A DNA stretch of 64,000 bases from Clostridia bacterium (GTDB lineage Bacteria > Bacillota > Clostridia > CAKSNL01 > HGM11501), in contig JAZQAZ010000040.1 of NCBI GenBank assembly GCA_045545475.1, positions 9,136-73,135 of the forward strand. The letters run 5' to 3'. Numbering within the stretch: position 1 is the stretch's first letter; each line of letters starts with the position of its first letter. The notes beneath the pieces are model-generated. The model had not been told where the DNA came from. It searched no databases and saw nothing but the letters and a program-made list of their open reading frames with translations. Position numbers and translations under genes: made by a program. Below are positions 18,171 to 31,621 of the stretch, one piece after another.

Positions 18171-18372
18171 CAATCTCATTCCTTATCTAATATCGTCTTA
18201 ATACCGGTCGGATATACCGATTCATACTAATTATACACCAAAACAGTTAAAAGTACAATAACAAACTTATTAATATATTGTAAAATTTTTCTTCTTTTAT
18301 ATTGTAAATTACGTTATTTTGTGCTATACTATTATATTATAATGTAATTTAATGAAAGGAACTCTATCAAAA

Positions 18373-21096
18373 ATGGGATTATTCACTAAAATCTTCGGTA
18401 CTCACAGTGACCGTGAAATAAAAAAGATAATGCCTGTTGTTGAAAAAATTTTGGCTTTGGAACCCTCCATGCAGGCACTTTCCGACAGCGAGCTTTCTGC
18501 CCAGACAGAAAAATTCAAAGAACGCTATAAAAACGGAGAAAGCTTGGATTCCCTTCTTCCCGAAGCCTTTGCCACGGTAAGGGAAGCTTCTTTCAGAGTT
18601 TTGGCAAAGAAACCCTTCCCAGTTCAGCTTATGGGCGGTATAATTCTCCACGAAGGAAGAATTGCCGAAATGAAAACAGGTGAAGGAAAAACCCTTACCG
18701 CAACGCTTCCGGCATACCTTAATGCAATTGCAGGAGAAGGCGTCCACGTCGTTACCGTAAACGAATACCTTGCCTCCACCCAGGCAGAAGAAATGGGAAA
18801 ACTTTTTAACTTCCTTGGTCTATCCGTGGGCACCACTTTAAGCGGAAGAAGTCCCGAGGAGAAAAGAGCTGCATACAATGCCGATATCACCTACGGAACA
18901 AATAACGAATTCGGCTTTGACTACCTGCGTGACAATATGGTTATCTATAAAGAAAACATGGTTCAGCGTCCGCATGCCTTTGCAATTGTTGACGAAGTAG
19001 ACTCCATATTAATCGACGAGGCAAGAACCCCTCTTATTATAAGCGGTCGTGGCGAGGAATCATCCGTTCTGTACACCCATGCAGACCGATTTGCCAAAAC
19101 GCTCAAAGCTTTCTATATCAAGGAAACCAACGACAAGGAAAGTAACGATAACATTGATGCTGACTATATCGTTGAAGAACGCACCAAATCTGTAACGCTT
19201 ACCGCAAACGGTATTAAAAAGGCAGAAATAGCATTTAATATTGAAAACCTGTCTGATCCGGAAAATATGACCTTAAGCCACCATATCAATCAGGCTGTAA
19301 GGGCAAATTCTATTATGAAACGTGACGTTGACTATGTGGTGAAGGACGGAGAAATCATCATTGTTGACGAATTTACAGGCCGACTTATGTACGGAAGACG
19401 ATATAACGAAGGCTTGCATCAGGCAATAGAGGCAAAGGAAGGCGTAAAAGTAGCAAACGAATCAAGAACGCTTGCAACCATCACTTTCCAGAATTATTTC
19501 AGACTTTATAAAAAGCTTTCGGGTATGACCGGTACCGCCATTACAGAGGAAGAAGAATTCAGGGAAATATACCGACTTGACGTTGTATCAATCCCCACAA
19601 ACCGACCCATGATAAGAGTTGACCATGATGACAGAGTTTATAAAAACGAACGTGGCAAATTTATGGCAATTGCCGCACAGGTGGAAGAGTGCCACAAAAA
19701 AGGTCAGCCGATTCTGGTAGGTACCATTTCCATTGAAAAATCAGAAGCACTTTCTGCTCTCTTAAAGAAAAAAGGTATCCCCCATCAGGTTCTTAATGCA
19801 AAACACCACGAAAAGGAAGCTCATATCGTCGCTCAGGCCGGAAGAAAAGGTGCAGTTACCATATCCACCAATATGGCCGGCCGTGGAACAGATATTCTTC
19901 TTGGCGGTAATCCGGAAATCATGGCTCTTGATCAGATGAGAAAAGAAGGCTATGAGGAATCCGTTGTTGCCGAAGCCAATATCCACACCCCCACCGTCGA
20001 TCCTGAAATTCTTTCCGCCAGAGAGCACTTCAATGAGCTCTATAAGGAATTCAAGGTCGAAACAGACAAGGAGCACGAAGAGGTTGTATCTTCAGGCGGT
20101 CTTTTCATCCTTGGTACCGAGCGTCATGAATCAAGACGAATTGACAATCAGCTCCGTGGACGAAGCGGAAGACAGGGTGATCCCGGCGAATCAAGATTTT
20201 TAATCGCACTTGACGATGATCTGATGCGACGTTTCGGCTCCGACAGGATAGAGACCATCATGAGCATGACAGGTTTTTCCGATGATGAGCCTATTGAAGC
20301 AAAAATGCTTTCCGGCGTAATAGAAAACGCTCAGAAGAGAGTTGAAAGCAACCACTTCGCTGTCAGACGTAATGTTCTAAGATACGACGATGTCATAAAC
20401 CAGCAAAGAAGTGTAATGTATGCACAGCGTGCAATGGTTCTTGATAACAAGGATTTGAAGCAGAACATCATATCCATGGCGGAAAAGGTGTTCTCCGAAA
20501 TCTTAAGCGTATATGCTTCAGACAACTATGCCGATAACTGGGAATGGGAAGGTTTAAATGCCGCTGTTTCCAAAATACTCCCCCTTGAAGCTCCATTAAA
20601 CTATGACCGAGACACATATGACCGTCTCTCACGAGAATGGGTTCTTGAAGATTTAATGAAGCTTTTCAATGAAAACTATGAAAAGCAGGAGGAAATCTTC
20701 GGCGACGAAATGCGTGAGGTTGAGCGTGTAATCATGCTTCAGGTGGTTGACCGTCACTGGATGCAGCATATCGATGACCTTGCACAGCTTCGTGAAGGTA
20801 TTTCTCTACGTGCCTATGCACAGCACGATCCGGTGGTTGAATATCAATCTGTAAGTTCAGAAATGTTCGATGAAATGAATGCATCAATCAGAGAGGAAAC
20901 CGTAAGCGGAATTATGCATGTAAGAAAAAGAAGCGATGCAACCGAGCGTAAACAGGTTGCAAAAGCGGTCTCCACAGGCGAAAGCAAGGAAGTTGCAAGA
21001 AAACCCGTGGTAAACGAAGAAAAGAAAGTTGGCAGAAACGATCCCTGTCCCTGCGGCAGCGGCAAGAAATATAAACAATGTTGTATGGAAAAATAA
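18373..21096 (+). CDS. secA: Preprotein translocase ATPase SecA
   Basis: [35 protein letters not shown]-terminal [18 protein letters not shown]. Confidence 0.99.
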
Positions 21097-21119
21097 ATTC
21101 AATAAAGAATTTATTTTTC

Positions 21120-21222
21120 CAAAATTGTGCGAGCGTTGCCGACGTAGCCGAGTTTTACGGAGTATTTACTCGGCGTAAGTCGGCTGTAAAACGCGAACAG
21201 CCTTTTGTGCACTGCTCGGAAC
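21120..21222. repeat. Structured dispersed repeat, copy F (inverted orientation)
   Basis: Reverse complement reads gccgac-ttac-gccgagt-AAATACTCCGTAAA-actcggc-tac-gtcggc. Confidence 0.8.
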
Positions 21223-21275
21223 AAACTCTATATCAAAAAAATCCTTCAACAATCTCCAGAAAGGAATAAATAACC

Positions 21276-22388
21276 ATGCTTGAATTTGACGAATACAGAT
21301 TAAACCTTGCCAGAAAGGAAGAACCTTTGGCACAATTAAATCAGTCCATGAACATACCCGGACTCGAAACACAGATTGAGGAAAAGGAAAAGCTTACCTT
21401 AGACCCCAACTTTTATAATGACACCAAGGAATCCCAGAAGGTACTCAAGGAAATAAATCTCCTTAAGAGTAAGGTTGCAAAATATAAGAGCGTTTACTCT
21501 ACCTGGGAGGATTTAACCTCTCTTTGTGAGCTTGGCGACGAAATGGAGGACTTATCTGTCCTCGAGGAGCTTGCAGCAGGAATTGAGGCTTTTGAAAAAT
21601 CCCTTGAGGATCTGCGTCTTGAAACCCTTCTCTCCGGTCCCTATGACAGAAACAATGCACTTATGACAATCCATGCAGGTGCAGGCGGAACCGAAGCACA
21701 CGACTGGGCGGAAATGCTCCTTCGTATGTATGAACACTGGGCTGAACGCAAAGGTTTCACAGTTAAACTTCTTGACTGTCTCGACGGAGAAGAAGCCGGT
21801 GTAAAGAGTGCAACCCTTTCCATTGAAGGCGAAAACGCTTACGGCTATGCCAAGGCCGAAAACGGAGTTCACCGCTTGGTTCGTATCTCCCCCTTTGACT
21901 CTGCCAGCCGTCGTCATACCTCATTTGCTTCCTGCGAAGTAATCCCAGAAATAGATGAGGACTTGAACGTAGAAATCAATCCTGATGACTTAAGAGTTGA
22001 CACCTATCGATCCAGCGGTGCAGGCGGTCAGCACGTTAATAAAACCGAATCTGCAATAAGAATAACCCATATTCCCACGGGTATCGTTGTCTCTTGTCAG
22101 AACGAGCGAAGCCAGATTCAGAACAGAGAAACAGCAATGAAAATGCTCAAATCCAAGCTTGTTGAAATTGCAGAGCGTGAGCATTATGAGAAAATTTCAG
22201 ACATTAAGGGTGTGCAGAAGGATAATGCCTGGGGTAGCCAGATTCGTTCCTACGTTTTCTGTCCCTACACTATGGTAAAGGACCACAGAACCAACTTCGA
22301 AGTTGGTAATATTGATGCCGTAATGGACGGAGAAATTGACGGATTCATCAACGAATACTTAAAGGCTGCAAACCTCGGCACACTGTAA
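21276..22388 (+). CDS. prfB: Peptide chain release factor 2 (continuous ORF, no frameshift)
   Basis: SPF motif (RISPFDS), GGQ motif, RRHTSFAS. Confidence 0.97.
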   Translation: MLEFDEYRLNLARKEEPLAQLNQSMNIPGLETQIEEKEKLTLDPNFYNDTKESQKVLKEINLLKSKVAKYKSVYSTWEDLTSLCELGDEMEDLSVLEELAAGIEAFEKSLEDLRLETLLSGPYDRNNALMTIHAGAGGTEAHDWAEMLLRMYEHWAERKGFTVKLLDCLDGEEAGVKSATLSIEGENAYGYAKAENGVHRLVRISPFDSASRRHTSFASCEVIPEIDEDLNVEINPDDLRVDTYRSSGAGGQHVNKTESAIRITHIPTGIVVSCQNERSQIQNRETAMKMLKSKLVEIAEREHYEKISDIKGVQKDNAWGSQIRSYVFCPYTMVKDHRTNFEVGNIDAVMDGEIDGFINEYLKAANLGTL

Positions 22389-22407
22389 AAGAAAGGAGGC
22401 TCTCCGT

Positions 22408-22902
22408 ATGGAAAAATGGGATATACTGAATTCTGCCGGAGAACCTACCGGAGAAACAGTAGTAAGATCGGCCAACGCATTAAAGGAAGGCCAGTATCAC
22501 CTGGTGGTGCATATCTGGGTTATAAACGATAAGAAGAAAACACTCATTCAAAAGCGAAGTGATACGGTGAATATTCTCCCGGGCATTTGGGCAACCACAA
22601 GCGGATCTGCTTTAAGCGGAGAAACGGAATTGGATGCCGCTAAGAGAGAGCTTTCCGAAGAGCTTGGGATTAAATCCGGCGACGAGGAGCTGATACTTAT
22701 AAAGAAGTATCGAGGCAGAAACAACTTCGTTTACGTTTATGCCGTACATAAAAATGTAGGAATCTCTGAAATCACAATGCAGGCGGAAGAGGTTCAGGCA
22801 GTAAAGTGGGTCACTTCTGATGAACTTTCGGATATGGTACATAAAAAGCAGTTTCATCACTATAACTATATGGCTGAGCTTTATGAATATATGAATAAAT
22901 AA
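22408..22902 (+). CDS. NUDIX hydrolase
   Basis: Nudix box GSALSGETELDAAKRELSEELG. Confidence 0.9.
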   Translation: MEKWDILNSAGEPTGETVVRSANALKEGQYHLVVHIWVINDKKKTLIQKRSDTVNILPGIWATTSGSALSGETELDAAKRELSEELGIKSGDEELILIKKYRGRNNFVYVYAVHKNVGISEITMQAEEVQAVKWVTSDELSDMVHKKQFHHYNYMAELYEYMNK

Positions 22903-22929
22903 ACGGTTGGGTGTTCCCCAACCGTTTTT
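22901..22929 (+). terminator. Intrinsic terminator after secA-prfB-nudix
   Basis: AAACGGTTGGG-tgttc-CCCAACCGTTTTT. Confidence 0.8.
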
Positions 22930-22932
22930 CTG

Positions 22933-23043
22933 TTGACCGTTCTCTTTTTTCGTGCTATACTGTTTTCAGAGGTTGACTCATTTTTATATCTGAAGCAGCA
23001 TTTTTGCTGTGAGGTAGGTAGGAGTCAGCCTCTTTTCTCATTT
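22933..23043 (+). ncRNA. Promoter + hairpin small RNA cassette 1 (putative)
   Basis: TTGACC-17-TATACT with TG; RNA AGAGGTTGACTC...GAGTCAGCCTCT followed by T-tract. Confidence 0.6.
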
Positions 23044-23045
23044 AT

Positions 23046-23073
23046 GACACCTTGACTTTTAATCAAGTGCTCT
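23046..23073. other. 28-bp copy of tRNA-Lys anticodon arm with inverted 7-nt loop
   Basis: GACACCTTGA-CTTTTAA-TCAAGTGCTCT versus 14082..14109 GACACCTTGA-TTAAAAG-TCAAGTGCTCT. Confidence 0.8.
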
Positions 23074-23076
23074 TTC

Positions 23077-23198
23077 TTGACAAATTTAAATAAATCTGCT
23101 ACAGTATATGTAGTAGTTGAAATGTTTTTTGTGGAGCCGCCGCTACGAGTTTTCTCGAAAGTGCGTCCTCCAACATTATCAGCTACTTTTTTCATTTC
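23077..23198 (+). ncRNA. Promoter + hairpin small RNA cassette 2 (putative)
   Basis: TTGACA-17-TACAGT with TG; RNA AGTAGTTGA...TCAGCTACT followed by T-tract. Confidence 0.6.
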
Positions 23199-23202
23199 CG
23201 CC

Positions 23203-23237
23203 AAATAAAAAATCCCCTTATCGGGGATTTTTTATTT
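23203..23237. terminator. Bidirectional terminator
   Basis: AAATAAAAAATCCCC-ttatc-GGGGATTTTTTATTT. Confidence 0.8.
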
Positions 23238-25221
23238 AATCAAGTTCTTTTTTTCCTGTATAAAGTTCGTAATAGCGTCCCTTTAATTTGAGAAGCTCGT
23301 CGTGAGTTCCCTCTTCCATAATTTCGCCCTTTTCAAGAACAATAATTTTATCCGCATTTCTTACGGTGGAAAGACGGTGAGCAATTACAAAGGTGGTACG
23401 CTCCTTCATAAGGCGATCCATACCGTGCTCGATGTGCATTTCCGTACGGGTGTCGACGGAGCTTGTCGCCTCGTCAAGCACTAAAATCGGAGCCTTACTT
23501 ATTGCCGCACGGGCAATGTTAAGTAGCTGCCTCTGACCCTGGGAAAGGTTTTGACCATCTCCCATAATTTCCGTTTCGTAACCCTTTGAAAGCCTCATAA
23601 TAAAGCTGTGGGCACTGGCGGTTTTTGCCGCTGCAATAACATCTTCATCCGTGGCATCAAGTCTGCCATATCGGATATTTTCCATAATTGTACCGGAGAA
23701 AAGATGGGTATCCTGAAGCACCATGGCAATGTTTTCACGAAGGGATTCCCTCGTATATCCCTTAATCGGTACACCGTCAATGGTTATCTCTCCGCTTCCC
23801 ACATCGTAAAATCTGTTGATAAGATTTGTGATGGTTGTCTTTCCCGCACCGGTTGACCCTACAAAGGCAACCTTTTCACCGGGACGTGCCACAACGGAAA
23901 GATTTTTAAGGATAAGCCTTTCTTCCGTGTAGCCGAAGTTTACGTTTTTAAGGATAACCTCGCCCTTTATTTCGCCCATTTCTACTGCATCAGTACTGTC
24001 TGCTATCTCCGGAGAGGTATCCATAACCTTAAACACACGCTCCGCACCGGCAAGAGCGGAGAACACATTACTCATTTGCATGGAGATCATATTAATAGGC
24101 TGGGCAAACTGCCTGGAATAGTTGGCAAATACCGTAAGTGCACCGGGGGTGAATCCGCTTGTTATCATCATAATACCGCCGATTCCCACAGTAATGGCAT
24201 AGGTAATCTGGCTTGTATTTCCCATAACGGGCCCCATAATACCGCCGTAAAACTGAGCTTTAAACTGAGTGTCACGAAGATCATTGTTGAGAAGCAAAAA
24301 CTCATCCTCGCATACGCTTTCGTGGTTAAACACCTTAACAACCTTCTGACCTGTTACGCTTTCCTCAATATAACCGTTAACCGCACCCAATGATGCCTGC
24401 TGACCTTTGTAGAAGCGACGGCCTCTTTTAGATATTGCCGCTCCGCCGAAAACAAAGATTGGCACAAATAAAACGGTAACCATTGTAAGTACCCAGTTGG
24501 TTGTTATCATGAATACAAATGTACCAACAAGGGAGATAGAGCCTGAAATAAGCGATACAAGAGAGTTGTCAAGCATCATACCGATGTTGTCAACGTCGTT
24601 GGTAAAACGGCTCATAACGTCGCCTGTACTCTCGTTGTCAAAATACTTTAACGGGAGGGACTGAAGCTTTGCAAAAAGCTCGTTTCTTATCCTCTCCAAA
24701 GAGCCTTGGGTGATGGAAAGCATAAGTCTCGACTGAAAATATCCGGATAAAGCACCCACAAGATAAATTGTAAGAAGAATAACAATTCCCGCTATCATGT
24801 AGGTTAATACCTCGTAAAGCCTGCCTTCGGCAAAGATTCCCGAAAGAAACTCCGTTTTGGTAAGCGAGGTAATAATTTTGTCTGCAAACTCCTCAAGAGC
24901 ACTTACTTCAACCTCTGCATCAGGCGATGCCGTAAGGGCAATTTTGTCTATTATGGGAGCCAGCATGAATGAACCGAAAAGTGCTGTCAACGTATGAGTA
25001 ACCATAAGAAGCATAACAAGTGCAAGCTTGAACTTATAGCTTGCCATATACTTCCAGAGTCTCTTAACTGTTTTACTTGTATCCTTAGGCTTTCCTCCGA
25101 GACCTCTCGCCATAGGTCCACCTCTGCCCGGGCCACCCGGTCCTCTTCCCTGAGCACCCGTAGCCATATTATTATGGCCGGTGTTATACTGCTTTTTAAG
25201 TTCGTCAATATTTCTTGCCAT
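23236..25221 (-). CDS. ABC exporter ATP-binding/permease subunit
   Basis: TMD + GSTGAGKT, LSQGQRQ, LDEAT, AHRL. Confidence 0.95.
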   Translation of the reverse strand: MARNIDELKKQYNTGHNNMATGAQGRGPGGPGRGGPMARGLGGKPKDTSKTVKRLWKYMASYKFKLALVMLLMVTHTLTALFGSFMLAPIIDKIALTASPDAEVEVSALEEFADKIITSLTKTEFLSGIFAEGRLYEVLTYMIAGIVILLTIYLVGALSGYFQSRLMLSITQGSLERIRNELFAKLQSLPLKYFDNESTGDVMSRFTNDVDNIGMMLDNSLVSLISGSISLVGTFVFMITTNWVLTMVTVLFVPIFVFGGAAISKRGRRFYKGQQASLGAVNGYIEESVTGQKVVKVFNHESVCEDEFLLLNNDLRDTQFKAQFYGGIMGPVMGNTSQITYAITVGIGGIMMITSGFTPGALTVFANYSRQFAQPINMISMQMSNVFSALAGAERVFKVMDTSPEIADSTDAVEMGEIKGEVILKNVNFGYTEERLILKNLSVVARPGEKVAFVGSTGAGKTTITNLINRFYDVGSGEITIDGVPIKGYTRESLRENIAMVLQDTHLFSGTIMENIRYGRLDATDEDVIAAAKTASAHSFIMRLSKGYETEIMGDGQNLSQGQRQLLNIARAAISKAPILVLDEATSSVDTRTEMHIEHGMDRLMKERTTFVIAHRLSTVRNADKIIVLEKGEIMEEGTHDELLKLKGRYYELYTGKKELD

Positions 25222-25224
25222 GAC

Positions 25225-26958
25225 TCACACCTCCTTCCCCGACATCTGCGAGGTATAAATTTCCTTATATTCCTCGTTGGATGAAAGAAGCTCGTCATGA
25301 GTTCCGACACCGGTAATCACGCCGTCGTCCATAACAATTATTTTATCAGCTTCCATAACAGAAGAAATTCTCTGTGCAATAATAATTTTGGTAGAATCCG
25401 GAATTTCTGCCTTAAGTGCCGCCCTTATCTTTGCCTCAGTCGCCGTATCAACAGCACTGGTGGAATCATCGAGTATCAAAATTTTCGGCTTTTTTATTAA
25501 AGCTCTTGCAATGCAAAGTCTCTGTTTCTGACCTCCGGATACGTTCACACCGCCCTGCTCAAGCTCCTTTTCATAGCCTTCAGAGGAAGCTTCGATAAAT
25601 CCTCTGGCCTGAGCACTTTCACTTGCCTTTACAATATCTTCATCGGTGGCGTTTTCATCGCCCCATAATAAATTATCACGAATAGTACCCGAGAATAAAA
25701 TGTTTTTCTGAAGCACCATACCAACGCCGTCTCGTAAGTTTTTAAGACTGTATTCCGATACCGGCACACCGTCAACCAAAACTTCTCCCTCATCGGGATC
25801 GTACAGTCTCGGAATCATGGAAACCAACGTGGTTTTACCGCAGCCGGTGGAACCGATTATACCCACCGTCTCCCCTGCTTCTATTTTCACATTGATGTTT
25901 TTAAGCACTTCGTCGGGACTGTCCTTGTAATAGCGGAAGGACATATCACGAAATTCCACTTCTCCACGTGTAACTTTAAGTTCGGGATATTTTGCATCAT
26001 CGTCAGTAATATCCGACTTTTCATCCAGAACCTCTTTTATTCTTCTTGCGGAAGCAAGAGCACGGGATGAATGCATAAGCATCATTGTTACCATCATTAA
26101 TGATGATAAAATCTGAGTAACGTATGTAATAAAGGAAGAAAGGTCGCCTATAGGCATGGGAAAATCCACATCAAGCACCATTTTTCCGCCAAACCACAAA
26201 ACTGCAATGGTAGTAAAGTTCATAAATATGGTCATTACGGGGCCCATAAAAATCATAACTTTAACTGCAGACATATTCGCTTCCTTAAGATCGGCATTGG
26301 CGTTTCCAAACTTTTCGATTTCATGCTGTTCACGGACAAAGGATTTTACAACACGGACATTTGTGATATTCTCCTGCACCGTTGAGTTAAGCTTATCTAC
26401 CTTGACCTGCATTTTTCCGAATCTGGGAAAACCTGTTCTTATGATGAATATAACAGAAACAAGCATAAGAGGAATTGTAACAGCTAAAACCACCGCAAGA
26501 GATGGCTTTAACCTTATTGCCATAATAAGTGCACCGATAAGCATACCGGGCGAACGAAGGAACATACGAAGCAGCATATTCACAAAGTTCTGCACCTGGG
26601 TTACGTCGTTGGTAAGACGGGTAACAAGGGAGCCGGTTGAAAATTTGTCAATATTGGCAAAGGAAAAGCCCTGTACCCTTTTATAAATATCCTGTCTCAA
26701 ATCTGCCGCAAAATTAACCGACGCCTTTGCTCCGAAATATGCACCGCCGACACCGCCTGCCATCATAATGAGGGCAAGACCAATCATACAAAGTGACATT
26801 TCAATGGAAAAGCCTATACCCTTTGCAACGCTTTCATTGATAATTCCGGCAAGAAAGCGAGGCATAAAAACTTCGCCGATAACCTCGATAATCATACAAA
26901 GAGGTCCCAAGATGAAATACAATAGATACGGTTTTATGTATTTAGTCCACCGTTTCAT
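25225..26958 (-). CDS. ABC exporter ATP-binding/permease subunit (degenerate-site partner)
   Basis: GSTGCGKT, VSGGQKQ, ILDDST, IAQR. Confidence 0.95.
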   Translation of the reverse strand: MKRWTKYIKPYLLYFILGPLCMIIEVIGEVFMPRFLAGIINESVAKGIGFSIEMSLCMIGLALIMMAGGVGGAYFGAKASVNFAADLRQDIYKRVQGFSFANIDKFSTGSLVTRLTNDVTQVQNFVNMLLRMFLRSPGMLIGALIMAIRLKPSLAVVLAVTIPLMLVSVIFIIRTGFPRFGKMQVKVDKLNSTVQENITNVRVVKSFVREQHEIEKFGNANADLKEANMSAVKVMIFMGPVMTIFMNFTTIAVLWFGGKMVLDVDFPMPIGDLSSFITYVTQILSSLMMVTMMLMHSSRALASARRIKEVLDEKSDITDDDAKYPELKVTRGEVEFRDMSFRYYKDSPDEVLKNINVKIEAGETVGIIGSTGCGKTTLVSMIPRLYDPDEGEVLVDGVPVSEYSLKNLRDGVGMVLQKNILFSGTIRDNLLWGDENATDEDIVKASESAQARGFIEASSEGYEKELEQGGVNVSGGQKQRLCIARALIKKPKILILDDSTSAVDTATEAKIRAALKAEIPDSTKIIIAQRISSVMEADKIIVMDDGVITGVGTHDELLSSNEEYKEIYTSQMSGKEV

Positions 26959-27416
26959 TTAATCTGTCCTTTCTCTTTTAGATTTTCTTTCATTTTTTTA
27001 AGTGTTTCGATAAATGCAACAAGCTCATCCTCCGTTACTCCCGTAACCATATCCTTGTCGATGGAGTCGAAAATTTCCCGTGAACGCATAACGACGTTTC
27101 TGCCCTTTTCTGTGATTGTAACATCGTTGTATCTTGCATCCTTGTCGGAGGTTTTTCTCTGGATATACCCTCCCTCTATAAGTTTCTTAACAGAAACTGC
27201 TGCAGCCGCAGGCGTTATGGAAAGAGACTCTGCCAATTCTTTCTGCGAAACCGCCTTTCCGAAACGGTAAAGATGCATAAGCATAACGTGCTGACTTCTG
27301 TGAAGCTTAATTTCTTCAAGCCTCTTTTCAACAACCTTTTTGTGCAAACGGTCCGTGCACATAAAAAGCCCCACCGCCTCGTGATAGAGACTTTTTTCCT
27401 TTGTATTTTTCTCCAT
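26955..27416 (-). CDS. MarR-family regulator
   Basis: SQKELAESLSITPAA...GYIQRKTSDKDARYNDVTITEKG; first gene of ABC operon. Confidence 0.9.
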   Translation of the reverse strand: MEKNTKEKSLYHEAVGLFMCTDRLHKKVVEKRLEEIKLHRSQHVMLMHLYRFGKAVSQKELAESLSITPAAAAVSVKKLIEGGYIQRKTSDKDARYNDVTITEKGRNVVMRSREIFDSIDKDMVTGVTEDELVAFIETLKKMKENLKEKGQIK

Positions 27417-27487
27417 AGGTCACCTCCTGAAATAAATAGAAGACAGTTAAAGCGTTAATAATTAACACCTTAACCGTTAACTATTTA

Positions 27488-27516
27488 ATTATATTATAAT
27501 GCGGTGCTTTTGTCAA
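27488..27516 (-). promoter_or_regulatory. Promoter of marR-ABC operon, followed by TTAA-rich putative operators
   Basis: TTGACA-17-TATAAT; several TTAAC/GTTAA half-sites at 27445..27482. Confidence 0.65.
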
Positions 27517-27550
27517 TAGAAAAAGGAGCTTTTTCACCCCTCCCTCACAT

Positions 27551-27613
27551 ATGTCATTCTTCCATCGGAGATTTTCCAGTCAGAGACGAAAATCTCCGAT
27601 GGAAGAATCTCAC
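27551..27613. repeat. Long palindrome of the TGTCATTCT...GAAGAATCT REP-like type
   Basis: ATTCTTCCATCGGAGATTTTC...GAAAATCTCCGATGGAAGAAT; related ends at 3551 and 37021. Confidence 0.6.
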
Positions 27614-27616
27614 TTC

Positions 27617-27740
27617 TTGACAAATTCAAATAAATCTGCTACAGTATATGCAGAGGTTAGATTTTTCGATGTGTATTCTGAAGTCGGATTTGTTCCGGCT
27701 TTAAGGACACCTGAAATGTCAACCTCATTTTTTATTTCCC
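27617..27740 (+). ncRNA. Promoter + hairpin small RNA cassette 3 (putative)
   Basis: Promoter nearly identical to cassette 2; RNA AGAGGTTAG...TCAACCTC followed by T-tract. Confidence 0.6.
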
Positions 27741-27785
27741 ACCTTGCATTTCACACTTAAAAAACGCCCGCTTCCGGGCGTTTTT

Positions 27786-28337
27786 TTATCTCCTGTAGCA
27801 CATACAATCCTTTGAATGTCCGTTTATTATCCCCATGGACTGCAGATAGGAATATATAATGGTAGAGCCCACAAAGCTCATCCCTCGCTTTTTAAGGTCC
27901 GCCGATATGGCATCTGAAAGCGGCGATGTTGTCCTTTCCGTAAACTCCTCATTAATAATTTCGGGTGCAAAGCTTCTCAAATATCCGTAAAAGGAGCCCT
28001 TCTCCTTCACGATTTCCTTAAATATCCTGCTGTTTTTTATTGCCGCCTTAATTTTAAGACGGTTTCTTATTATGAGGGGATTTTCCATAAGCTCCGCAAT
28101 TTTTTCTTCGCCATAGGCACTTACCTTATCAATGTCAAAATTGTCAAACGCCGCCCTGAAATATTCCCTTTTGTTAAGGATACATTCCCAGGAAAGCCCC
28201 GCCTGAAAGGATTCCAAAATTAAAAGTTCATAAAGCCTTCCATCCTCCGTCAGAAGCCTTCCCCATTCCTCATCGTGATATTTAATGTATTTTTCATTTT
28301 TAAGATTAACCCAGCTGCACCTTTTACACATAAGCAC
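27786..28337 (-). CDS. tag: DNA-3-methyladenine glycosylase I
   Basis: RCSW...YHDEEWG, LESFQAGLSW, IIRNRLKI, NGHSKDC. Confidence 0.93.
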   Translation of the reverse strand: MLMCKRCSWVNLKNEKYIKYHDEEWGRLLTEDGRLYELLILESFQAGLSWECILNKREYFRAAFDNFDIDKVSAYGEEKIAELMENPLIIRNRLKIKAAIKNSRIFKEIVKEKGSFYGYLRSFAPEIINEEFTERTTSPLSDAISADLKKRGMSFVGSTIIYSYLQSMGIINGHSKDCMCYRR

Positions 28338-28389
28338 CGCTCCTTAAAGAAAAGGGAAAAGCTGTGCTTTTCCCTTTTATCCGTACCGT

Positions 28390-28584
28390 CGTAAAAAATT
28401 GCTTTGTTGCAATTCCTAAGAAAACCCTCTTCGGGTTTTCTTTTTTTATTAATCAGCCTCGCTAAAAACCTTTTCGGCTTTTAACGACACCTTTCGCTGA
28501 TTTAAATGCTCCGCAAAAAATCAGCACGGTGTCCACGCTCGCTGATTCTTCAGTAAAAAAATTGCTTTGTTGCAATTTTTTTAC
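28390..28584. repeat. Structured dispersed repeat, copy C
   Basis: gacacc..gctgattt-AAATGCTCCGCAAA-aaatcagc..ggtgtc; flanking AATTGC-tttgtt-GCAATT hairpins. Confidence 0.85.
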
Positions 28585-29699
28585 TTTCGCCAGAATCCCT
28601 TATCCTTCTTTATGCCTGCATAATTTTTATCGCCGGTCATTTCGGCAAATTCTAAAAGCTTCGCCTTCTGTTCCTTGCTTAAGTTTTTGGGCGTATCAAC
28701 GATAATCGTTACATATTCGTCGCCCTTCTGAGGGTTATGAAGCTTCTGAATTCCCTTTTCCTTAAGACGGAAAATGGAATTTGACTGTGTTCCCTCCGGG
28801 ATGGTAAATTCCACATCGCCGTGAATTGTGGGAACCTGACAGGTTGCACCAAGGGCCGCCTCCGTTATGCTGATGTGCTTTTCAACATAAACATCAAAGC
28901 CCTTTCTCTTAAAGGTTTTGTCGGGAGTAATTGCAACGGTTACAAGTAAATCGCCGTTGGGACCTCCACGAAGGCCGCATTCGCCCTCGCCTGACACGCT
29001 CATCGTCTGTCCGTGATCGATACCGGCCGGAATATTAACCTCAACTGTCTTCGTTCTTCTTACGCTTCCTCTTCCACGACAGCTTTCGCAGGGAGTTTTT
29101 ATAATCTTACCGCTACCAGAGCAGCTCTGACAGGTTGTAACCGTGGAGAAAAAGCCACCCATGGTGTTTCTCACCTGACCTGTACCGTGACAAACCGAGC
29201 ATGTTTCAGCAGTAGTTCCCGCCTTAGCACCGGAACCTCCGCAAGTGTCGCACTTTTCGCTTCTGTAAACCTCTATTGTCTTCTTACAGCCGAAAGCCGC
29301 CTCGGAAAACGTAAGGTTTATCTGCTTATTCAAATCGTTTCCGCGTACAGGGCCGTTTCTTCTCTGACCGCCGCCACCGAAAAAGCTTCCGAAAATGTCA
29401 CCAAGGTCAACATCAAAGCCTCCGAAGCCGCCGTTAAAGCCACCTCCGTATCCGCCGCCCTGAGTCTGATCAAAGGCCGCGTGACCGAAACGGTCGTACT
29501 TTGCCTTCTTATCCGCATCGGATAAAACCTCATATGCCTCGTTTACTTCCTTAAACTTAACTGCCGCACTCTCAGGATCGTCCTTATTCAAATCGGGGTG
29601 GTACTTTTTCGCAAGTGAACGGTACGCCTTTTTAATTTCTTCGTCCGTCGCTCCCTTGGAAACGCCCAGCACCTCGTAATAATCTCTTTTATCTGCCAT
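28581..29699 (-). CDS. dnaJ: Chaperone DnaJ
   Basis: J domain HPD, G/F region, four CxxCxGxG repeats. Confidence 0.98.
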
Positions 29700-29780
29700 A
29701 AATATAGTCCTTTCGCATTAAATGCAATATCTATGTAAACAGTATATGCCGGACGGCGCTTACCGTCCGGCTTAAATCTA

Positions 29781-31601
29781 TTAGTTTACGTCTGTAAAGT
29801 CAGCGTCCTGTGCACCTGCGGGGCCTTCCTGACCTGCACCAGCATTACCCTGAGCCTGCTGCTGTGCAGCTGCTTCCTGGTATACTCTCTGACCAATCTG
29901 GCTCATCTTCTGCATAAGAGCATCGCTTGCAGCTTTGATTGCCTCAGTATCTGTGCCCTTAAGAGATTCCTTAACCTTGTCAGCTTCTGCCTTAAGGTCG
30001 TTCTTTTCGTCCTCAGACATCTTGTCGCCCATATCTGTTATGAGCTTTTCTGACTGATAAACCATCTGGTCTGCTGAGTTTCTTATATCAACCTCTTCCT
30101 TACGCTTCTTATCCTCAGCAGCATACTGCTCTGCTTCCTTAACAGCCTTATTAATCTCGTCCTCGGAAAGATTTGTAGATGCAGTGATTGTGATATTCTG
30201 CTCATTACCTGTTCCTAAATCCTTTGCAGATACGTGAACGATACCGTTAGCGTCAATATCGAATGTAACTTCGATCTGGGGGATTCCTCTGGGAGCGGGA
30301 GCAATGCCTGAAAGCTGGAAGTTACCCAATGTCTTATTATACTGTGCCATTTCTCTTTCACCCTGAAGAACGTGAACGTCAACAGAGGGCTGATTATCTG
30401 CAGCTGTGGAGAAAATCTGGCTCTTCTTTGTGGGGATTGTGGTGTTTCTTTCAATAATCTTTGTAAATACTCCGCCCATGGTTTCGATACCGAGTGAAAG
30501 AGGAGTTACGTCAAGAAGTACTAAATCGTCAACGTCACCGGAAAGTACGCCACCCTGGATTGCGGCACCCATAGCAACACATTCGTCTGGGTTGATTTCC
30601 TTACTGATTTTGGATCCAACAAGCTTTTCAACAGCTTCGCATACGGCAGGGATTCTTGTGGAACCGCCAACCATAAGTACCTTCTTTATGTCGCTTGTGG
30701 AAAGACCTGCATCGGATAATGCCTTCTTAACGGGAACCATTGTTTCTTCAACAAGGTCAGCTGTAAGTTCATTAAACTTTGCTCTGGTTAATGTCATATC
30801 AAGATGTAAGGGGCCTTCTGCACCTGCAGAAATATAGGGAAGATTGATGGATGCGCTTGTAACGGAAGAAAGCTCGCACTTAGCCTTTTCAGCCGCTTCC
30901 TTAAGACGCTGAGAAGCCATCTTGTCGTTTCTTAAGTCAATGCCGTTGTCCTTCTTGAATTCCGATGCGATATAGTCGATGATTCTGTTATCGAAGTCGT
31001 CACCGCCAAGTCTGTTGTTACCGCAGGTGGCCATAACCTCGAATACGCCGTCGGAAATGTCAAGGATGGATACGTCGAATGTACCGCCACCTAAGTCAAA
31101 TACCATAATCTTACCGTCAGGATCCTTGTCTGCGCCGAAAGCAAGAGCTGCAGCTGTGGGCTCGTTTATAATTCTCTGAACATCAAGACCTGCAATCTTA
31201 CCTGCATCCTTTGTTGCCTGTCTCTGAGCGTCTGTGAAGTATGCGGGAACTGTGATAACAGCCTGTGTTACAGTTTCGCCCAAATAGCTTTCAGCGTCTG
31301 CTTTAAGCTTACCTAAAATCATAGCGGAAATTTCCTGAGGAGTGTAATTCTTTCCGTCAATGTCCACCTTGTAGGAAGAACCCATTTCTCTCTTGATGGA
31401 GATTATTGTTCTGTCGGGGTTGGATACAGCCTGACGCTTTGCAACCTGACCAACAAGTCTCTCACCATTCTTTGTGAAACCAACAACAGAGGGAGTTGTT
31501 CTCATACCCTCAGCGTTAGCGATAACCACTGCGCTTCCGCCTTCTAAAACGGCTACGCAGGAGTTTGTTGTACCTAAGTCTATACCGATAATCTTTGCCA
31601 T
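29781..31601 (-). CDS. dnaK: Chaperone DnaK
   Basis: [31 protein letters not shown]. Confidence 0.99.
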
Positions 31602-31621
31602 AATATATTCCTCCAATTAAA

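Follow-up and report, generated by a model that had tools for sequence, protein, structure and literature searches.

The 64,000-nucleotide stretch of Clostridia bacterium DNA analyzed here (the window; assembly GCA_045545475.1, contig JAZQAZ010000040.1) raises the question of what kind of element is represented by three short units that each combine a promoter, a hairpin and a T-tract. The original prediction had described them as a cassette-like set of independently transcribed small RNAs (sRNAs) with a constant scaffold and a variable interior. The best explanation places the usual home of this class of modules opposite the linkers that join the domains of giant polyvalent virion proteins in Clostridia phages, with the copies in the window as orphans that occupy variable intergenic slots among housekeeping genes. 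We tentatively regard units 1 to 3 as putative orphan antisense sRNA genes, similar to lambda OOP and IS10 RNA-OUT, that would act in trans on polyvalent mRNAs. Small antisense RNA genes of mobile elements are of a kind already known; new are orphan copies and arrays in chromosomes, the statistics on covariation, and the reading of one RNA core in two frames.

Architecture of the three units

The units and their parts are the following:

22933..22961, + strand: unit 1 promoter; -35 TTGACC (22933-22938), 17-bp spacer, TG-extended TGcTATACT ending at 22961; 10/12 with TG present
22968..23033, + strand: unit 1 RNA body; 66-nt rod-like hairpin with a 12-bp closing stem, AGAGGTTGACTC paired with GAGTCAGCCTCT
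23033..23043, + strand: unit 1 tail; T-rich TTTTCTCATTT, by reading a weak intrinsic-terminator tract
23052..23057, + strand: lone -35-like TTGACT between units 1 and 2, by reading without a -10 element or hairpin of its own
23077..23105, + strand: unit 2 promoter; TTGACA (23077-23082), 17-bp spacer, TGcTACAGT ending at 23105; nearly identical to that of unit 3
23112..23187, + strand: unit 2 RNA body; 76-nt hairpin, member of the LPD3-linker RNA family with the core GAGCCGCCGCTACG ... AAGTGCGTC
23187..23192, + strand: unit 2 T6 terminator tract
27617..27645, + strand: unit 3 promoter of the unit 2 type; TTGACA (27617-27622), 17-bp spacer, TGcTACAGT ending at 27645
27653..27726, + strand: unit 3 RNA body; 74-nt hairpin, no homologue found
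27728..27733, + strand: unit 3 T6 terminator tract (by reading)

Reading of the sequence bore out the positions and the promoter-hairpin-T-tract layout that had been proposed. In a promoter scan of positions 22000-29000 the three units each scored 10/12 with TG present and took ranks 2-4 among 22 sites, the marR promoter being the only one to score higher. Minimum free energies of units 1, 2 and 3 amount to -31.4, -28.4 and -31.6 kcal/mol with folding z values of -5.63, -5.42 and -5.70, and for none of the units did any of 200 shuffles fold as well. The nearly exact promoter common to units 2 and 3 is real as well: a 34-mer is present exactly twice in the window, where chance would give none. 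When the whole genome (2.74 Mb) was scanned strictly for a promoter followed by a hairpin of at most 80 nt closed by its 5' and 3' ends and by a T-tract, eight matches to the full architecture resulted, compared with none in a reversed-sequence control. Units 1-3 and another two units, both on contig C25, make up five of the eight; the other three lie on contigs C3, C15 and C20, and two of these resemble plain terminators. In line with the original prediction, under which no open reading frame (ORF) led by a ribosome-binding site (RBS) follows the units, no plus-strand gene lies 3' of any of them and, by reading, no consistent RBS-led ORF is found inside the RNAs. Two short motifs that had been pointed out carry less weight. 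TCTGAAG, common to units 1 and 3, occurs at about chance level (an estimate of ~0.25 for two 70-nt sequences), and the CCTCC of unit 2, which resembles an anti-Shine-Dalgarno (anti-SD) sequence, is unconserved and peculiar to this copy: the other 25 aligned members of its family have G at the position of unit 2's T and read CCGCC, CAGCC or CTGCC.

Unit 2 RNA genes opposite giant phage ORFs

A promoter-blind pattern scan with the unit 2 core, which required an exact match to 21 core bases, was run over 185,579 species genomes and yielded 33 loci. The whole unit is kept in the 25 loci that carry Clostridia/Bacillota-type labels (Acutalibacteraceae, Oscillospiraceae, Ruminococcus, Feifaniaceae, Eubacteriales and others); the remaining eight belong to other phyla, lack the architecture and were taken as chance matches. 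With the window copy, locus L102 and a viral contig (L104) the 25 loci make up a family of 28 members, 22 of which have an exact TTGACA -35 element with a good -10 element at the same distance, and in 23 a run of four or more T begins 17-21 nt past the core.

In phage and prophage DNA, members of this family lie antisense inside seven ORFs of at least 1384, at least 1182, at least 2268, 633, at least 834, at least 2514 and 3059 aa, all of which read through the RNA gene in frame, and the 3059-aa ORF sits on an IMG/VR viral contig. The order LPD3, unit, ART-PolyVal was found in all six ORFs scanned with Pfam. Units of other types begin at the end of MuF_C in five of five cases (4/4 plus an ORF on contig C25 of the genome studied here), and the RNA bodies behind MuF_C are of at least three unrelated kinds. 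The C25 ORF comprises 3168 codons with a Pfam MuF_C domain at residues 1488-1601; the first unit starts at about residue 1603, and both units (C25:15355 and C25:16774) lie on the opposite strand and are read through in frame. The promoter type of units 2 and 3 also precedes other RNA bodies inside ORFs of 773 and 1009 aa (L086, L087), which agrees with the earlier idea of a shared promoter with differing payloads.

As described in the parts of Iyer et al. (2017; PMC5512222) available to us, polyvalent proteins are packed into virions and MuF-C is a PBECR RNase-fold domain. Supplements aside, no mention of linkers, hairpins or internal promoters was found in these parts, nor a passage on linkers, hairpins or promoters in those consulted of Jamet (2017; PMC5576092), and the literature searched yielded no published description of antisense RNA genes in polyvalent-protein linkers.

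Several further features of these loci were recorded. The ORF of this genome (G000 contig C25, 10776-20279; L037 2777-12280, minus strand) is of the polyvalent type, lies in a phage-like contig, matches phrog_22978 and has a C-terminus of GGGLGS repeats; each of its antisense units is followed, in the sense of the protein, by VNT(Y/Q)(S/Y)MQDGG(S/E)YS. The terminal loop CAAUUGGAG (variants CAAUCGGAG and CAAUUGUAG) is common to several otherwise different unit bodies behind MuF_C (L037 at 7356, L039, L041, L052, L053, L059, L060, L075 and L082), the stems of which covary (GUAAGC/GCUUAC versus GGGC/GCCC). Since CAAUUG is self-complementary, loop-loop pairing is conceivable. A unit 2-type RNA in L076 (154-244, minus strand) has neither promoter nor T-tract and is immediately followed by the apparent 5' part of a tRNA gene, and in L046 and L067 the unit 2 core stands within a different closing stem, the promoter being likewise absent; the core may therefore also sit within longer transcripts.

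Conservation of the RNA and its strand

An alignment of 26 unit 2 relatives gives a consensus fold of 28 pairs, 16 of which show compensatory changes. Paired cells amount to 91.3%, compared with 80.2% in shuffles, of which 0/500 reach the observed value, and with 31-41% when the partners are slid by 1-3 columns. Pair 27:63, for example, is GC in 12 sequences, UA in 10, AU in 4 and broken in none, and pair 42:50 is GC in 15, AU in 9 and GU in 2. Further homologues with covarying closing stems, as had been envisaged for the whole set, do exist for unit 2.

In the unit 2 family 105 G.U pairs stand against 10 A.C mismatches, one G.U being invariant, and the hairpin of the promoter strand is the more stable one in 15 of 19 hairpins drawn from all unit types (-31.3 versus -18.0 on the opposite strand for unit 1; -30.1 versus -18.3 for unit 3). 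The fold therefore belongs to the strand that is transcribed from the promoter. The core GACGCACTT is translated as GGRT in L048, L053, L058 and L071 and as ADAL in L059 and L065, the frame around it being restored by compensating 1-nt indels on either side. Since the core is read in two reading frames, it is the RNA that is conserved and not the peptide, which makes this a clean case of an RNA fold selected inside a protein-coding frame read in two registers. Stems of the MuF_C-linked type show changes that preserve the hairpin and alter the amino acids (PRL versus TLKL; S/I and T/E/A around KLQLL).

Relationship among the units, orphans and arrays

Units 1-3 presumably form one class composed of separate families, unit 3 being the unit 2 promoter on an unrelated body and unit 1 a third type. 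The notion of a single family in which a constant scaffold encloses a variable, guide-like interior has to be given up: within the genome, a covariance model of unit 2 matches unit 2 and nothing else, and in the unit 2 family it is the core of the interior that is most conserved and the closing stem that varies. The suggestion that the units might be orphans was closer to the mark. Unit 2 is a stand-alone copy of an RNA gene found elsewhere antisense inside giant phage ORFs and shares 108 of 122 positions with the unit within the ORF of at least 1384 aa in L048.

BLAST of the genome revealed no other copy of units 1, 2 or 3. Among the congeners, unit 1 has a homologue in genome G009 (87% identity over 76 nt) and unit 2 one in genome G011 (71% identity over 125 nt), the latter located between rplQ and the gene for 5-formyltetrahydrofolate (5-FTHF) cyclo-ligase, non-syntenic with the window, and retaining a coding-type flank of ~18 nt. 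No homologue of the unit 3 body was found in 14 family genomes, and of the short matches that turned up in 35 of 399 scored class genomes, most concern the promoter or the T-rich tail and none spans the body. The body patterns of units 1 and 3 gave 0 matches in viral contigs, and the unit 1 pattern gave one match in metagenome contigs, which is without unit architecture and was taken as chance. Units 1 and 2 and the C25 unit found no match by BLAST in 50,697 phage records, and the MuF_C tail of G008, used as a query for related loci in viral contigs, returned nothing; the 15355-type promoter pattern matched in three viral contigs.

Stand-alone copies span the segment from -35 to T-tract only, their flanks being unrelated, as judged by eye, outside the -35 element and ~10 nt past the T-tract, and those of the unit 2 family keep 91% of the base pairs. 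The antisense frame set by the -35 element is free of stops in 26 of 40 stand-alone units of all types (16 stops in total), compared with 2-14 of the 40 for the other five frames (39-130 stops), which points to a coding origin or to ongoing exchange with in-ORF copies. From T-tract to -35 this antisense frame is open in units 2 and 3 and contains one stop in unit 1.

Gut Clostridia carry orphan copies in ordinary intergenic DNA, sometimes ten or more in a row. In other Clostridia metagenome-assembled genomes the units form arrays of one orientation, in which a T-tract abuts the next TTGACA (four units in L052, five in L068, ten or more in L075) and whose neighbours include housekeeping genes, e.g. 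infB and proS. In G009 the homologue of unit 1 adjoins a homologue of C25:16774, one of the in-ORF units. The architecture is found in this genome with other RNA bodies as well: several hairpins in a row, preceded by a pair of similar promoters, lie between a hydrogenase gene and a gntR gene, and contig C17 contains two or three tandem units. A G-run/C-run element (GGGG..GGGGGAAATCGCAATCCCCCTGTCCCC-like) was seen beside unit arrays in two unrelated genomes (L020 ~1280-1340 from G003, and L075); in L075 (minus strand) the units at 950 and 1507 stand on either side of it, and L075 contains three repeats of GACAAGGGGACGGTTCTGTTGT as well.

The slots themselves were compared with those of the congeners G002 and G003. 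Unit 3 is absent from both, G003 carrying two other units at the exact site, and TTGACA(gca/aca)TTTCCC at this site in G002 and G003 looks like an emptied site; by comparison, the lone TTGACT between units 1 and 2 of the window is possibly the stump of a lost unit. At the slot of units 1 and 2 both congeners have other DNA, 0.75 kb long in G003 and 3.4 kb in G002. The G002 segment (L105, G002:C49:22900-26700) encodes a C-terminal fragment, 57 aa long, of a Toxin-deaminase (PF14424, E 6.5e-9); behind it come two ORFs of 162 and 173 aa, which are paralogous and immunity-gene-like in appearance, so that this slot collects conflict-system cassettes. The corresponding segment of G003 (L106, G003:C489:8800-9800) contains two overlapping small minus-strand ORFs.

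Putative function and competing explanations

Each unit is predicted to produce, from a strong housekeeping-sigma promoter, a rod-shaped RNA of 66-76 nt ending at an intrinsic terminator. We infer that these RNAs are made, that they pair with a target and that pairing has an effect. Within a phage gene the RNA would act as a cis-antisense RNA of the lambda OOP / IS10 RNA-OUT kind and pair with the giant mRNA at the linker, which may shut off or cut this mRNA, so that the toxic cargo protein would stay silent except during lytic growth; orphans in the chromosome may act likewise in trans on related polyvalent mRNAs of resident or incoming elements. If the RNAs are made, giant phage cargo genes carry hidden opposite-strand RNA genes that are missed by gene callers and Rfam, and phage polyvalent effectors would be linked to an RNA countermeasure on the side of the host or the prophage. 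A concrete pair for experiments is provided by the unit 2 RNA and the LPD3-ART linker.

Several observations weigh against the antisense assignment. The genome contains no sequence complementary to units 1-3 except the units themselves, so that a trans target must be foreign or unassembled. No in-ORF homologue of the unit 1 or unit 3 body was found in the family and class genomes or in viral and metagenome contigs, and these two units are presumed members of the class by their architecture only, together with the open antisense frame, the promoter type of unit 3 and the array neighbours of unit 1 in G009. In the unit 2 family, moreover, the internal-loop core is conserved and the terminal loop variable. 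Classical antisense RNAs that pair first through loop contacts tend to show the opposite pattern, a conserved loop, and the distribution seen here speaks for a protein as the recognizing partner. That the core is invariant is in part a matter of construction, as members were collected by exact core match; the covariation in the two flanking helices is unaffected by this.

The main rival to antisense control is a protein-binding RNA, a role that the conserved internal-loop core suits. The RNA would be a putative inhibitor, decoy or "immunity RNA" for the adjacent polyvalent domain, comparable to type III antitoxins, and we consider this doubtful; equally doubtful is its extension, in which orphans and arrays would correspond, at the level of RNA, to orphan immunity-gene arrays and protect against injected effector domains. 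Besides the conserved core between two covarying helices and below a free terminal loop, such a role would account for the maintenance of the core at the nucleotide level across two reading frames, for the tight coupling of RNA type and neighbouring domains (LPD3, unit and ART in 6/6) and for the position of units behind MuF_C, described as an RNase-fold domain of the PBECR type in the parts consulted of PMC5512222. The lack of a cognate target in the genome fits a defence against incoming proteins, and the slot of units 1 and 2 in G002, with its Toxin-deaminase fragment and paralogous small ORFs, has the layout of an orphan toxin-immunity locus. However, MuF_C is followed by three or more unrelated bodies, which means that domains and RNAs are not paired one to one, an RNA of this type has no need of antisense placement, and the invariance of the core partly reflects the way in which family members were gathered. 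A still broader proposal holds that the variable arrays of captured linker RNA genes in Clostridia chromosomes constitute a heritable RNA-based immunity, by antisense silencing or by directly neutralising "immunity RNAs", the genes having perhaps been lifted from promoter to terminator out of the linkers of polyvalent effector genes of phages or conjugative elements; we regard this as unlikely.

Two explanations dispense with a function of the RNA. The units may be recombination or shuffling modules that provide short homologies for the swapping of phage domains and chromosomal cassettes, similar to the PeSL elements of T4-type phages, with the RNA being incidental. One 37-nt promoter stands on unrelated bodies (units 2 and 3; L086 and L087), both slots of the window differ between congeners, the positions of units coincide exactly with domain borders in proteins whose domains are known to be shuffled (PMC5512222, in the parts consulted), and the PeSLs, as far as described in the accessible parts of two studies (PMC2839356; PMC4122927), are strong sigma-70 promoters with terminator stem-loops that mediate modular exchange. 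Exchange by homology would, however, require neither a compensated 70-nt fold nor a G.U bias on one strand nor a terminator for a short RNA, and the stem-loops of PeSLs overlap or adjoin the promoter and precede an ORF led by an SD sequence, whereas the hairpin of the units is the predicted transcript and no ORF comes after it. We hold this explanation to be rather improbable, and we give even less credence to the view that the units are relics or selfish passengers, i.e. decaying scraps of polyvalent genes or in-frame palindromes like the Rickettsia palindromic elements (RPEs), with no present host function. The excess of open antisense frames in stand-alone units (26/40 versus 2-14) speaks for a coding past, and the coding-type flank of the G011 copy, the low copy number and the non-syntenic positions are in keeping with relics. 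Yet decay would not trim copies exactly from promoter to terminator with a consensus promoter in 22/28, keep 91% of the pairs in stand-alone copies or produce ordered arrays of abutting units in one orientation, and neither terminal inverted repeats nor target duplications nor a transposase were seen.

Comparison with known families and classes

With Rfam 15 at gathering score only eight tRNAs and no unit were matched in the window. At E values of up to 10 over positions 22800-27900 no match covered the unit bodies; the weak matches touching the units (14-26 bits, less than half the gathering scores) concern 3' ends, T-tracts, downstream terminators and the promoter of unit 3, the latter being reached by SSRC34_1 (27528-27643, minus strand). 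No Rfam family thus accounts for the units, and their description as independent promoter-RNA-terminator cassettes, as opposed to leaders or plain terminators, is supported. Like sRNA genes, all three have a sigma-70-type promoter at the proper distance from the 5' end of the RNA, and a stable fold kept by compensatory changes is found for unit 2; the single homologue of unit 1 folds more weakly (-17.6 kcal/mol). Overlap with an opposite-strand target gene, the feature of cis-antisense RNAs, is seen in the phage copies only: in the window no minus-strand ORF of at least 60 aa extends over the units, and the minus-strand frame across unit 2 has, by reading, 56 codons and lacks a start codon in G011.

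Other candidates were rejected. Minus-strand protein genes are contradicted by the shift of frame within the conserved core, by the missing start codon in G011 and by compensatory changes that alter amino acids. A type I antitoxin would call for an adjacent small hydrophobic toxin ORF, which by reading is absent (the neighbours are Nudix, ABC exporters, MarR and methyladenine glycosylase), and a type III antitoxin for tandem repeats of ~36 nt upstream of a toxin gene, which by reading are absent too. The unit stems run, by reading, GTT...AAC, opposite to the R''/R' boxes of integron attC sites (RYYYAAC...GTTRRRY), and Pfam detects no integrase among the genes from 18352 to 31616. Miniature inverted-repeat transposable elements, with terminal inverted repeats, target duplication and many copies, are contradicted by the lack of further unit copies in the genome, and retron RNAs and plain terminators by the anatomy. 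The idea, prompted by the sequence only, that A-tract and hairpin give the giant ORFs a -1 frameshift signal explains neither promoter nor orphans.

Lambda OOP and IS10 RNA-OUT are cis-antisense control RNAs of mobile elements with a strong promoter of their own, a single stem-loop of ~70-80 nt and their own terminator. The phage copies of the units resemble them in being encoded opposite a mobile-element protein gene with their own promoter and terminator; they differ in lying mid-ORF in inter-domain linkers and not at the 5' or 3' end of a gene, in the presence of several unrelated RNAs per giant gene, in that the three copies of the window overlap no gene, and in that their pairing and effect are putative. 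RPEs are high-copy palindromic insertions in the frame of coding genes, without promoter or terminator. The units share with them a length of ~100 bp of hairpin-forming DNA that is read through in frame by host ORFs, as well as intergenic copies, but are low in copy number per type and have a consensus antisense promoter, a terminator and a strand-specific RNA fold. ToxI, the RNA of type III antitoxin systems, is a tandem 36-nt repeat in the same operon as the toxin, which processes it, and the orphan immunity-gene arrays directed against polymorphic toxins encode proteins. A small product encoded beside a conflict-system effector, with a neutralising role that is putative for the units, and orphan copies in chromosomal arrays are points in common with both; the units lack tandem repeats and a toxin operon and encode a predicted RNA, the interaction of which with an effector is putative.

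PeSL cassettes, finally, consist of a sigma-70 promoter and a stem-loop and are, in the parts of Arbiol et al. (2010; PMC2839356) and Comeau et al. (2014; PMC4122927) that were consulted, reported as repeated in the most plastic parts of T4-type phage genomes; their short stem-loops, which either overlap the promoter or adjoin it, serve as terminators of transcription from upstream, and an SD sequence with an ORF comes next (PMC2839356). Units and PeSLs have in common that small modules of promoter and terminator-type stem-loop lie at the borders of swapped modules. The PeSL layout of stem-loop at the promoter, SD sequence and ORF in a T4-type hyperplastic region is not found in units 1-3, whose hairpin of 66-76 nt lies downstream of the start site as the predicted product, and units differ further by covariation and by their ability to sit in frame inside ORFs.

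Gene neighbourhood and minor observations in the window

The gene order around the units is secA, prfB and Nudix on the plus strand, units 1 and 2, two ABC genes and marR on the minus strand, unit 3, and methyladenine glycosylase, dnaJ and dnaK on the minus strand; the marR-ABC-ABC operon does lie between units 2 and 3, as the original prediction had it. A 69-codon plus-strand ORF (27551-27760) that starts upstream of the unit 3 promoter and spans unit 3 together with an inverted repeat was taken as chance. This repeat (27556-27608), a perfect 21-bp inverted repeat formed by ATTCTTCCATCGGAGATTTTC, an 11-nt loop and the reverse complement, lies just upstream of the -35 element of unit 3; part of its left arm only is present in G003, and it is absent from G002. 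The promoter of the marR-ABC operon (27516-27488, minus strand) is a perfect 12/12 consensus, and an AT-rich palindrome of 16 pairs between this promoter and the marR start (27477-27443, minus strand) is predicted to be the likely MarR operator.

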